Source: Escherichia coli
GTDB taxonomy: Bacteria; Pseudomonadota; Gammaproteobacteria; Enterobacterales; Enterobacteriaceae
Direction: 5' to 3' (one strand)
Length of the DNA: 64,000 nt
Assembly: GCF_003018235.1 (NCBI RefSeq)
Contig: NZ_CP027437.1
The notes under the pieces are model-generated. The model ran no database searches. It was given only the letters and a program-made list of their open reading frames with translations, and was not told where the DNA came from. The stretch's first letter is position 1; each line of letters starts with the position of its first letter. Below, piece after piece: positions 53,757 through 56,407 of the stretch. The position numbers and the translations under genes were made by a program.

Positions 53757-54995
53757 ATGGCTGACACTCGCCTTGAACGTCGCTTTACGCGCATTGATCG
53801 TCTCCCGCCCTACGTTTTTAATATTACCGCTGAACTGAAAATGGCTGCGCGTCGGCGCGGCGAAGATATTATCGATTTCAGTATGGGTAACCCGGACGGT
53901 GCGACTCCGCCGCATATCGTCGAAAAATTATGTACGGTGGCCCAGCGACTGGACACGCATGGTTACTCTACTTCACGCGGCATTCCGCGGTTACGTCGCG
54001 CCATTTCCCGCTGGTATCAGGATCGCTACGACGTCGAGATCGACCCGGAATCAGAAGCCATCGTCACCATTGGTTCGAAAGAGGGACTGGCGCATCTGAT
54101 GCTGGCGACGCTGGATCATGGTGACACTGTACTGGTGCCTAATCCAAGCTACCCGATTCATATTTACGGCGCGGTGATTGCCGGGGCGCAGGTACGCTCA
54201 GTGCCGCTGGTGGAAGGTGTCGATTTCTTCAACGAACTGGAACGCGCCATTCGCGAAAGTTATCCGAAACCGAAGATGATGATCCTCGGCTTCCCGTCGA
54301 ATCCAACCGCGCAATGCGTGGAGCTGGAGTTCTTCGAAAAGGTTGTGGCGCTGGCGAAACGCTACGATGTGCTGGTGGTCCATGACCTGGCCTATGCGGA
54401 CATCGTCTATGATGGCTGGAAAGCGCCGTCAATCATGCAGGTGCCGGGTGCACGCGATGTGGCGGTCGAGTTCTTTACGCTGTCGAAAAGCTACAACATG
54501 GCGGGCTGGCGTATCGGCTTTATGGTTGGCAACAAAACGCTGGTCAGCGCGCTGGCACGTATTAAAAGCTATCACGATTACGGCACCTTTACGCCGTTGC
54601 AGGTGGCAGCGATTGCGGCGCTGGAGGGCGATCAACAGTGCGTGCGCGACATTGCTGAACAGTACAAACTCCGCCGTGATGTACTGGTAAAAGGGCTGCA
54701 TGAAGCGGGCTGGATGGTCGAAATGCCGAAGGCTTCGATGTATGTCTGGGCGAAAATCCCGGAACCGTATGCTGCCATGGGCTCGCTGGAATTTGCCAAG
54801 AAGCTGCTGAACGAAGCGAAGGTCTGTGTCTCTCCGGGGATTGGCTTTGGCGACTACGGCGACACGCATGTTCGCTTTGCACTGATTGAAAACCGCGACC
54901 GTATTCGTCAGGCGATTCGTGGAATTAAAGCGATGTTCCGTGCCGACGGTTTATTACCCGCCAGCAGCAAACATATTCACGAAAACGCGGAATAA
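53757..54995 (+). CDS. alaC: glutamate-pyruvate aminotransferase (class I PLP aminotransferase)
   Basis: 412-aa ORF with PLP lysine in [12 protein letters not shown]. Confidence 0.9.
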
Positions 54996-55012
54996 ACACC
55001 GACCTCAAAAAT

Positions 55013-55042
55013 GCAAACAGGAGCCTGATGGCTCCTGTTTTT
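55013..55042 (+). terminator. intrinsic terminator after alaC
   Basis: AAACAGGAGCCTGATGGCTCCTGTTTTT. Confidence 0.75.
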
Positions 55043-55049
55043 CATTGCA

Positions 55050-55121
55050 CAGTTTGCTTTTAGATCATCAGGGCAAAAGTACCGGCCCAAACGATGACCA
55101 TAAAAGAAATGCCCATAAAGA
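55050..55121 (-). CDS. ypdK: 23-aa small membrane protein (GTG start)
   Basis: Manual minus-strand translation: (M)KYFFMGISFMVIVWAGTFALMI-stop; matches recalled YpdK. Confidence 0.5.
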
Positions 55122-55486
55122 AATATTTCACTTTACATCTCTCCGCGTAATTACTGTTACGCCTGAATGACTTCATTACACCTGATACAGTGAGTTGACA
55201 CCGGGCAAAACGACCTTAAAAGTCCTGTATTCTACCGTGGGCATCACCCCAGAATTCTGAGCTAAACTGCTCCAGACGGCGCTAATGTACGCCTAAAACT
55301 GAAACGAGACAAGAGGCATTTTCTTATTTACTTTTAGTAACTTACAGGTGTCTCATATCGGCGACAGTTTAATTTCTGACGGTAATAATTAGAGATTCAG
55401 CGAAGGAAAAAACCTTAAGAAAAAAGCCATAAAAACCATGAGGTTATTATGGCTGATTTGAGGAGGGAAAGAGTTAGAGCAGTTTG

Positions 55487-56407
55487 TTAAATGTATAGCG
55501 ACGATTCTCCCACCGGGCGCGTTTTAAAGCGACGGTGGATCCAGAGGTACTGCTCCGGTGCGCGCATGATCTCTTTTTCGATAATCTTGTTCATATAGGC
55601 AGCGGCTTGATTTTCATCTGCCGGGTAGCCTTCCATCTCTGGGGTGATGTACAAACGATATCCGCTGTAATCCGCTTTTCTTACCATCGTTACGGTTAAC
55701 ATGGCTGCGCCAGAGAGACGTGAAAGGACATACGTACCATTGGTTGTGGCGACATTTTCCACCGCAAAGAACGGCGCGAAGGAGCTGCCTTTACGACCAT
55801 AATCCTGATCGGGAGCAAACCATACCGCTTCACCTTTCTTCAGTGCACCGACAATGCCGCGCAGATTATTTCTGCCGATCATCGCTTTGTTAGAGCGCAT
55901 GCGCCCACGGGTCTGCACCCATTCCATCAGCTGATTATTATGTGGACGATAGGTAGCCATCATTGGTTGGCACAGTCCCATCACGCGGCCGCCCAGCTCC
56001 AGCGACATAAAATGGACGCCGACAACCATTACGCCGCGATTTTGCATTTGTGCGCGTTTAAGGTTATCCAACCCTTCAACATCAAACCATTTACGTACGC
56101 GACTGTCGGGCCAGAACCACGCCATGCCGGTTTCTACCAGCGCCATGCCGAGTGAACGAAAGTTTTCGGCAATCATCTTCTCGCGTTCTTCCGCAGAATG
56201 CTGTGGGAAACAAAGTTCCAGGTTTTTACGGGCGATAGATTCACGCCGTTTCAGGAATGGTCGCGCCATTGCGCCAATACGCGTGCCGAGAAAGCAGAGA
56301 ACAGGATAAGGAAGCTGTACCCAAAGCCAGAGTACACCAAGCCCAAACCATGTGAGCCAGTAGCGAGGATGTAGAAACTCGCGGGAAAATTTGCATTGTG
56401 GAAACAT
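55487..56407 (-). CDS. lpxP: lipid A palmitoleoyl-ACP acyltransferase (cold-induced LpxL paralog)
   Basis: ORF track 55487..56473; ATG at 56407 gives 306 aa starting MFPQCKFSREFLHPRYW. Confidence 0.9.
   Translation of the reverse strand: MFPQCKFSREFLHPRYWLTWFGLGVLWLWVQLPYPVLCFLGTRIGAMARPFLKRRESIARKNLELCFPQHSAEEREKMIAENFRSLGMALVETGMAWFWPDSRVRKWFDVEGLDNLKRAQMQNRGVMVVGVHFMSLELGGRVMGLCQPMMATYRPHNNQLMEWVQTRGRMRSNKAMIGRNNLRGIVGALKKGEAVWFAPDQDYGRKGSSFAPFFAVENVATTNGTYVLSRLSGAAMLTVTMVRKADYSGYRLYITPEMEGYPADENQAAAYMNKIIEKEIMRAPEQYLWIHRRFKTRPVGESSLYI

Follow-up and report, generated by a model that had tools for sequence, protein, structure and literature searches.

Between alaC and lpxP in Escherichia coli lies a reading frame of 23 codons with a hydrophobic product, and its small size raises the question of whether it is a genuine gene and, if so, which protein it makes, how synthesis of that protein might be controlled and what the protein might do. 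We addressed this in a stretch of 64,000 nucleotides of E. coli DNA, hereafter the window. A preliminary description of the locus had placed a GTG-initiated membrane peptide of 23 codons here, on the strand opposite alaC. The peptide, strand, start codon, codon number and placement between alaC and lpxP all proved correct, but the coordinates it gave, 55050-55121, were 10 nt too low: translated on the minus strand, that interval gives SLWAFLLWSSFGPVLLP followed by two stops and SKSKL, with stops in frame. The peptide is instead encoded at 55060-55131 on the minus strand, where the frame reads GTG AAA TAT TTC ... ATG ATC TAA. Its raw translation is VKYFFMGISFMVIVWAGTFALMI followed by the stop, and the product is (M)KYFFMGISFMVIVWAGTFALMI. 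The gene and its neighbours are as follows.

55060..55131, minus strand: ypdK coding sequence, with GTG at 55131-55129, 23 sense codons and TAA at 55062-55060 (from translation, annotation, the NF033437 profile and conservation)
53757..54995, plus strand: alaC, the convergent neighbour; the tight alaC-ypdK pair is conserved synteny
55487..56407, minus strand: lpxP, the upstream neighbour on the same strand, 355 nt from ypdK (from annotation)

The statement in the preliminary description that K-12 carries ypdK at this site was borne out, as MG1655 has ypdK (b4680, YP_002791250.1, 72 nt, at 2,496,921-2,496,992) between lpxP and alaC. In the genome closest to the window, SC418 (99.8% identical), the homologous 72 nt are annotated ypdK (WP_010723117.1), and the 72-nt query was 100% identical to E. 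coli coding sequences annotated ypdK. The 601-nt region around the gene was matched in 5,422 of 5,426 complete E. coli genomes, and all of the matches listed carry "ypdK: membrane protein YpdK" between alaC and lpxP. The peptide scored 57.5 bits against the NCBIfam equivalog NF033437 "YpdK" (cutoff 30), its residues 1-23 aligning with positions 1-23 of the 23-position profile. An exact cluster look-up in a protein collection returned proteins of 23-24 aa named YpdK in Enterobacteriaceae, Pantoea and Serratia. The feature is a known and already annotated gene, ypdK, identical to that of K-12 in sequence, length, GTG start and position. YpdK is said to have been detected by epitope tagging in the small-protein work of Hemm and colleagues in 2008, and the gene has reportedly been annotated in E. 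coli K-12 since then. It is one of 18 small open reading frames (ORFs) reported by Hemm et al. 2008, according to PMC3009722.

The flanks in the window belong to a slightly divergent E. coli lineage, with identity of at least 99% over the 601 nt in only 273 of 5,423 records; for the 72-nt ORF, identity of at least 99% was found in 4,771 of 5,423. The median copy number was one per E. coli genome, and only 14 of 72,556 plasmid records contained ypdK, several of these being Mb-sized. ypdK is a single-copy chromosomal core gene. We hold it almost certain that ypdK is a real, translated gene that starts at the GTG, and highly probable that our explanation holds as a whole, namely that ypdK is a genuine gene for a 23-residue, single-helix inner-membrane protein.

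Conservation of ypdK next to alaC

To compare species, we assembled 80 loci, one genome per species, or 81 sequences with the window. The AlaC protein served as the sole anchor, and the presence of ypdK was thus not presupposed. The preliminary description had made the standing of the frame depend on its conservation in close relatives. Conservation reaches well beyond these: 75 of the 80 loci, or 76 of 81 with the window, have a YpdK-like frame immediately beyond alaC on the other strand. The genera with the frame include Citrobacter, Salmonella, Enterobacter, Kluyvera, Kosakonia and Buttiauxella, as well as Cedecea, Shimwellia, Pantoea, Erwinia, Mixta and Serratia. Klebsiella pneumoniae also has the gene, 95.5% identical and annotated ypdK. 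The frame was absent from five of the 80 alaC loci. One of these is a contig that stops 53 nt past alaC, and the other four are from Erwinia endophytica, a Symbiopectobacterium, Lonsdalea and a contig labelled Pseudomonas resinovorans.

Frame length is conserved at 23-24 codons across Enterobacteriaceae, Erwiniaceae-type genera and Serratia, and Escherichia, Salmonella, several Citrobacter and Yokenella share one and the same 23-aa peptide. Among 39 distinct YpdK peptides, Y3, M6, G7, S9, G17, T18 and F19 were invariant, and K2, W15 and M22 nearly so. Nucleotide changes fell mainly on third codon positions, with summed column entropies of 13.1, 4.2 and 26.1 for positions 1, 2 and 3. Synonymous changes made up 47% of pairwise codon differences in the ypdK frame, the highest share of all six frames. 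The two shifted sense frames reached 7-8% (up to 8.2%), and the three antisense frames gave 5.6%, 33% (the mirror frame) and 5.6%. This pattern indicates that purifying selection acts on ypdK as a protein.

The start region was equally constant. GTG is the start codon in all 76 loci that bear the frame, and a Shine-Dalgarno (SD) core precedes it.

55141..55144, minus strand: SD core GGAG, 9 nt before the GTG (from sequence)

CGGAG was invariant in an alignment of 34 leader sequences, and every one of the 76 loci has a GGAG, GAGG or AGGA 4-mer ending 7-10 nt upstream of the start codon, the distance being 9 nt in 57 of them. Judged from these alignments, the conserved product is the GTG-initiated form of 23-24 aa.

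In the window, the ypdK ORF lies 64 nt past the alaC stop (54995) in convergent orientation, with a terminator-like hairpin at 55040-55015 in between. The gap between the alaC and ypdK stops was 36-88 nt in 71 of 76 loci. On the other side of ypdK, a tblastn match to LpxP was obtained in 19 of the 76 loci, in Escherichia, Citrobacter, Salmonella and Enterobacter; elsewhere unrelated genes of either orientation lie upstream of ypdK. As read from these loci, what is conserved, and near-universal, is the convergent arrangement of alaC and ypdK around a hairpin. We also considered a functional coupling of YpdK to LpxP, comparable to that of PmrR and LpxT, and set it aside as unsupported, lpxP being adjacent in only 19 of 76 loci. 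In Pantoea and Erwinia, the neighbour of ypdK encodes a protein of 342 aa that is conserved and has a hydrophobic segment at its N terminus.

The predicted transcript and its structured leader

The sequences around the gene predict that ypdK is a stand-alone unit with its own sigma-70-type promoter, leader and terminator, composed of the following elements.

55284..55345, minus strand: predicted sigma-70 promoter of ypdK (from an alignment of 22 Enterobacteriaceae sequences)
55345-55315, minus strand: A-rich UP-like block, part of the predicted promoter
55312-55307, minus strand: -35 element TTGTCT of the predicted promoter, with a 17-nt spacer
55289-55284, minus strand: -10 element TACATT of the predicted promoter, with the GC-rich discriminator AGCGCC
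55256..55276, minus strand: HP1, the 5'-terminal hairpin of the predicted transcript, TCTGGAGC...GCTCAGA (from per-sequence folds)
55192..55250, minus strand: HP2, the central hairpin, with a base helix at 55250-55241/55201-55192 and a variable, indel-rich apex (from RNAalifold)
55145..55162, minus strand: HP3, GCGTA...TACGC, which directly abuts the SD (from the RNAalifold consensus)
55005..55040, minus strand: terminator-like hairpin and T-run ending ypdK (from a terminator scan)
55419..55454, minus strand: lpxP terminator-like hairpin, AGCCATAA...TTATGGCT followed by T6 (from a fold of 55395-55490)

The promoter was predicted from a near-invariant alignment block about 150 nt before the GTG, which reads CTTGTC-N17-TACATT-AGCGCC and has an A-rich stretch upstream. 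Of the 76 loci, 71 have TAnATT followed by a GC-rich discriminator, with a median distance to the GTG of 145 nt, and Erwiniaceae-type loci share the block GCGTAnATTAGCGC with TAAATT or TAGATT. K-12 has an identical promoter and a leader of equal length. A simple promoter scan, which requires 9 matches among 12 consensus positions, made no call at this site, where 8 match. Transcription is predicted to start near 55277.

At the other end, the minus-strand hairpin at 55040-55015 has an 11-pair stem with six GC pairs and the tail GCATTTTTGA (terminator scan). Read directly on the plus strand, the palindromic stem is followed by TTTTCATT, which places it to terminate alaC. The stem-loop at the alaC-ypdK junction is conserved across genera, and its placement would let it end transcription of alaC and ypdK alike. 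A terminator-like hairpin belonging to lpxP (stem 55454-55425 plus a T-run) precedes the ypdK promoter, which implies that ypdK is not simply the tail of the lpxP transcript. The ypdK transcript would thus be about 270 nt long, running from its own promoter to the hairpin shared with alaC.

The leader of this transcript, about 146 nt, is predicted from conserved sequence to contain three hairpins. The folding energy of the predicted 273-nt transcript was -92.2 kcal/mol, compared with -70.6 ± 4.8 for shuffled sequences (z = -4.5). Of 50 distinct leaders, 48 formed HP1 with a folding energy of at most -3 kcal/mol; the 5' arm of HP1 took 43 distinct sequences among 66 distinct leader starts, and the mean energy of the hairpin was -6.7 versus -4.1 kcal/mol after shuffling (mean z -1.36), which gives HP1 moderate support from folding. 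In HP2, six of the nine pairs had changed on both sides and 91.8% of cells were paired. Another E. coli, L003, lacks 33 nt of the HP2 apex. HP3 has five pairs, four of them changed on both sides, with 92.7% of cells paired. RNAalifold recovered 13 pairs from the 34 leaders, and at 10 of these at least one sequence had changed both sides with pairing kept. For a 14-pair leader structure, 92.1% of cells could pair, compared with 31-52% when partners were slid by 1-3 columns, and the covariation score was 0.40 versus at most 0.15, with none of 500 shuffles attaining 0.40. The SD had a median predicted unpaired probability of 0.26, compared with 0.40 for the rest of the leader, a weak hint that leader pairing partially sequesters it.

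Searches with Rfam 15 returned best matches of 17-24 bits for the leader, below gathering cutoffs of 41-70 and all to unrelated families, and no LexA box was seen in the leader by eye. We found no published description of the conserved ypdK leader. A 23-aa GTG ORF at 55176-55247 was considered as a leader peptide and set aside, since the segment is the indel-rich apex of HP2.

These features allow a reading in which the leader is an undescribed cis-regulatory RNA of Enterobacteriaceae and Erwiniaceae-type genera that would gate translation or stability of the YpdK mRNA on some signal. We regard this as possible, with the balance of probability against it. The signal could be, for example, temperature, growth rate (given the GC-rich discriminator of the promoter) or a trans-acting RNA or protein, and the invariant GTG would then belong to the same dosage control.

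A regulatory function could also be sought in the RNA itself, the transcript of about 270 nt acting primarily or additionally as a dual-function mRNA/small RNA (sRNA) or as a cis element on alaC, with the leader as its functional part. In its leader, blocks of nucleotide sequence have been preserved across genera, with helices kept by compensatory changes. The transcript shares with sRNAs a small size and a 3' end at a hairpin resembling a Rho-independent terminator, and its convergent linkage to alaC is tight and conserved. However, the ORF is clearly under protein-level selection, so that the RNA cannot be purely non-coding, the leader matched no Rfam family, and a structured leader is more simply explained by cis-control of ypdK translation or mRNA stability. 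We therefore regard a regulatory RNA as improbable and retain the reading of ypdK as a gene for a small membrane protein.

The membrane peptide and its possible role

The preliminary description had called YpdK a single-helix hydrophobic peptide, and both hydropathy and prediction agree. The Kyte-Doolittle mean over residues 4-23 is 2.15, and Table S1 of PMC10470546 gives a TMHMM transmembrane segment at residues 4-21 in an N-out/C-in orientation; the topology entered for YpdK in that table is a predicted one only. Lys2, together with the Glu that several genera have at the C terminus, would instead suggest N-in/C-out, whereas some genera end in Lys. The same table scores HA-MBP-YpdK as "-" for RseP cleavage, that is, uncleaved. 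YpdK had no match in Pfam or among the PADLOC defence-system models, and no solved structure in the PDB contains the peptide. Our full-text literature search found no functional study, partner or phenotype for ypdK. The incidental mentions it returned concern an Stx-phage insertion site, a machine-learning feature in Klebsiella and an overlap in a UV tiling array.

Several small membrane proteins of E. coli bind and modulate larger membrane proteins, namely AcrZ (partner AcrB), KdpF (KdpABC), CydX (CydAB), MgtS (MgtA and PitA), MgrB (PhoQ) and PmrR (LpxT). YpdK resembles these regulators in being shorter than 50 aa, in having one hydrophobic helix and no soluble domain, and in having been missed by classical annotation. 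According to Table S1 of PMC10470546, it was among the small membrane proteins screened alongside them. It differs from the characterised small membrane regulators in that, at 23 aa, it is among the shortest and has almost no extramembrane residues, and, unlike kdpF and cydX, ypdK is neither adjacent to nor in an operon with a gene for a membrane complex.

By analogy with these proteins, YpdK may insert into the inner membrane and act there as a transmembrane-helix accessory or regulatory subunit. Its helix would pack against a larger membrane protein through the small or polar residues G7, S9, G17 and T18, with the aromatic residues Y3, W15 and F19 also contributing, and the packed helix would stabilise or modulate this inner-membrane partner. 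The conserved residues are spread around the helix and not confined to one face, a distribution that would fit burial inside a complex and equally self-association. The neighbourhood offers no conserved membrane-protein candidate for a partner, as the sole conserved neighbour, alaC, encodes a cytosolic aminotransferase. We give this accessory-subunit mechanism somewhat less than an even chance. Together with the structured leader and an SD that is partly paired, the invariant weak GTG suggests that YpdK synthesis is kept low or conditional.

Tight control of a small hydrophobic peptide is also a feature of type I toxins. The type I toxin mRNAs tisB, dinQ, zorO, shoB, ibs and hok have long structured 5' leaders, and the ypdK transcript resembles them in its very small hydrophobic peptide, its long structured 5' leader and a ribosome-binding site that is predicted to be partly sequestered. 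Accordingly, YpdK could be imagined as a toxin-like peptide that damages or depolarises the membrane, with a folded leader that keeps the primary transcript translationally inert, as happens with tisB, dinQ, zorO, shoB and hok. The 23-residue hydrophobic product, a leader whose length and structure are unusual in a gene of this size, an SD predicted to be mostly paired and an invariant weak GTG, consistent with a strict limit on synthesis, would all suit such a peptide. However, type I toxins are typically patchy in distribution and often multicopy, whereas ypdK is a single-copy core gene with fixed synteny in at least two families. It is nearly absent from plasmids (the 14 of 72,556 records given above) and matched no defence-system model. 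Nor was an antisense RNA gene evident: a simple consensus scan, which is a weak test, turned up neither an opposite-strand terminator nor a promoter lying across from the ORF or the 3' part of the leader. The sole promoter-like site on the opposite strand, at 55361-55389, points away from ypdK, although an sRNA could escape such a scan. HA-MBP-YpdK was built and expressed in the screen of PMC10470546, with no mention of toxicity found there, but such a fusion is an unfair test of a toxin. A toxin is, in our judgement, quite improbable, and an accessory membrane subunit is the role that we favour for YpdK.

Start site and meaning of the gene

Two further ATG codons lie close to the GTG in the window.

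55133..55138, minus strand: ATG-TAA start-stop, out of frame, between the SD and the GTG (from sequence)
55174..55176, minus strand: in-frame upstream ATG, which would give a 38-aa isoform consisting of MKSFRRNSNYAERCKV and YpdK (from the ORF list)

An ATG at -7 relative to the GTG was present in 43 of 76 loci, and the frame opened there varied from 1 to more than 46 codons. It stays open because of the T at codon position 2 of the hydrophobic ORF. An overlapping protein starting at this ATG was rejected on account of its variable length (1 to more than 46 codons) and a synonymous fraction of 0.07.

The in-frame ATG at 55176 bears on the remark in the preliminary description that ORF calling filtered for ATG would miss the gene. 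It opens a 38-aa ORF, and the locus is thus not wholly invisible to such calling. It also raises the possibility that the main product in E. coli is this 38-aa protein, rather than the 23-aa GTG form. The ATG-initiated ORF is present in the window and in the other sampled E. coli, an AGGTG lies a few nt upstream of the ATG, and the 38-aa form has been called in E. coli and Shigella protein records. In the protein collection it was called only in records of E. coli and Shigella, mostly as "hypothetical protein" or "putative membrane protein". Among the sampled loci, however, an ATG at codon -15 was confined to the two E. coli sequences, and thus to Escherichia among the sampled species, and a stop in frame interrupts the sequence at most two codons upstream of the GTG in 37 of 76 loci. 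Moreover, the 15-codon extension overlaps HP3 and its flanks, which evolve as RNA with compensatory changes and not as codons, the invariant GGAG-N9-GTG marks the GTG as the selected start, and curated K-12 and RefSeq annotations start ypdK there. The upstream ATG is lineage-specific and probably not the conserved start. We consider it very improbable that the 38-aa protein is the main E. coli product; the longer isoform may be made in E. coli as a minor product.

A 23-codon ORF is unremarkable in itself, with 66 ORFs of at least 20 aa overlapping the surrounding 4 kb, and the case for ypdK therefore rests on conservation. A chance frame, kept open like others by hydrophobic codons and conserved through terminator or intergenic constraint only, has next to no probability and was ruled out by the substitution pattern (third-position bias, and the 47% synonymous share against 5.6-8.2% in four frames and 33% in the mirror antisense frame), by the invariant start codon and SD and the conserved length across 76 loci, by the existence of a curated equivalog profile and by the position of the ORF outside the terminator hairpin.

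As a discovery, the gene carries little weight, since RefSeq already names ypdK automatically. What this analysis adds to the known gene is modest: conservation across two families is put in numbers, the GTG proves invariant and the 38-aa form lineage-specific, the neighbour that is conserved is alaC and not lpxP, a promoter is predicted, and the structured leader, which has no match in Rfam, gains support from covariation. YpdK ranks among the most strongly conserved very small proteins of enteric bacteria, for which we found no reported function, partner or phenotype. Its invariant residues, a GTG start that is universal among the sampled species, the predicted promoter and transcription start site, and a structured leader with covariation are experimental handles on the gene. 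If the leader is cis-regulatory, the novelty would lie in the regulation of ypdK and not in the gene.

The ypdK leader RNA

The region immediately 5′ of the ypdK GTG start codon was both conserved and structured, with homologous regions in the alaC-anchored loci sampled at one genome per species (L003–L082).

55132–55277, minus strand: ypdK leader, ~146 nt

The leader contained three hairpins: one at its 5′ end, a long central one whose base covaries and whose apex is variable, and one directly next to the Shine-Dalgarno sequence (SD). This architecture was common to the Enterobacteriaceae and the Erwiniaceae-type loci, and none of the Rfam families matched the leader. Complementary CTGAG/CTCAG segments recur within it, and these repeats could allow alternative pairings. 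Among these segments is a palindrome, TCAGAATTCTGA in most genera and TCAGAATTCTGG in the window.

We found a shortened leader in L003, the locus of E. coli strain SCPM-O-B-8794. In a comparison of L003:4372–4487 with 55129–55277 of the window, it measured 113 nt against 146 nt, and the 33 nt difference corresponded to the apex of the central hairpin. K-12 carries the full-length leader. Because the L003 leader lacks the apex, this part of the central hairpin appears to be dispensable.

Promoter candidates

Two promoter-like features were located in the intergenic region.

55284–55345, minus strand: predicted ypdK promoter, with an A-rich UP-like block and the GC-rich discriminator AGCGCC
55361–55389, plus strand: sigma-70-like consensus match, GCGACA-17-AATAAT

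The discriminator of the predicted ypdK promoter was near-invariant between genera. Promoters under growth-rate or stringent control typically combine an A-rich UP-like block with a GC-rich discriminator. The plus-strand site, the sole sigma-70-like consensus match in the intergenic region, is oriented towards lpxP, and transcription from it would run antisense to the 3′ end of that gene. This single match was at chance level, as shuffled sequences gave a mean of 1.0.

Neighbouring genes and lineages

In the Erwiniaceae-type loci (L055–L082; Pantoea, Erwinia and Mixta), the place held by lpxP in E. coli was occupied by a conserved protein of 342 aa that carries a hydrophobic segment at its N-terminus and is encoded on the same strand, ~170–200 nt upstream of ypdK. 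Separately, a contig labelled Pseudomonas resinovorans DSM 21078 (L078) encoded an AlaC sharing ~91% identity with its E. coli counterpart, and ypdK was absent from this contig. A Pseudomonas would not be expected to show so high an identity, which points to wrong labelling or contamination of the contig, or to horizontal transfer.

Across 54900–55500 (601 nt), the E. coli lineage of the window is somewhat atypical. Identity of at least 99% was found in only 273 of 5,423 records, the top match being SC418, a sediment isolate (99.8%).

The ypdK start region

In some loci an additional ATG separates the SD from the GTG.

55133–55138, minus strand: out-of-frame ATG in the SD–GTG interval

This ATG was present in 43 of the 76 loci with ypdK. 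In E. coli it is followed at once by TAA, forming a start-stop, whereas in other genera the frames opening from it ran from 27 to >46 codons and were not conserved. The ATG may be a decoy start or a component of the SD context.

The ypdK start itself (55129–55131 in the window) was GTG in every sampled species (76/76). It remained so even though synonymous sites in ypdK were strongly diverged, which suggests that a weak ypdK start has been selected for rather than just tolerated.
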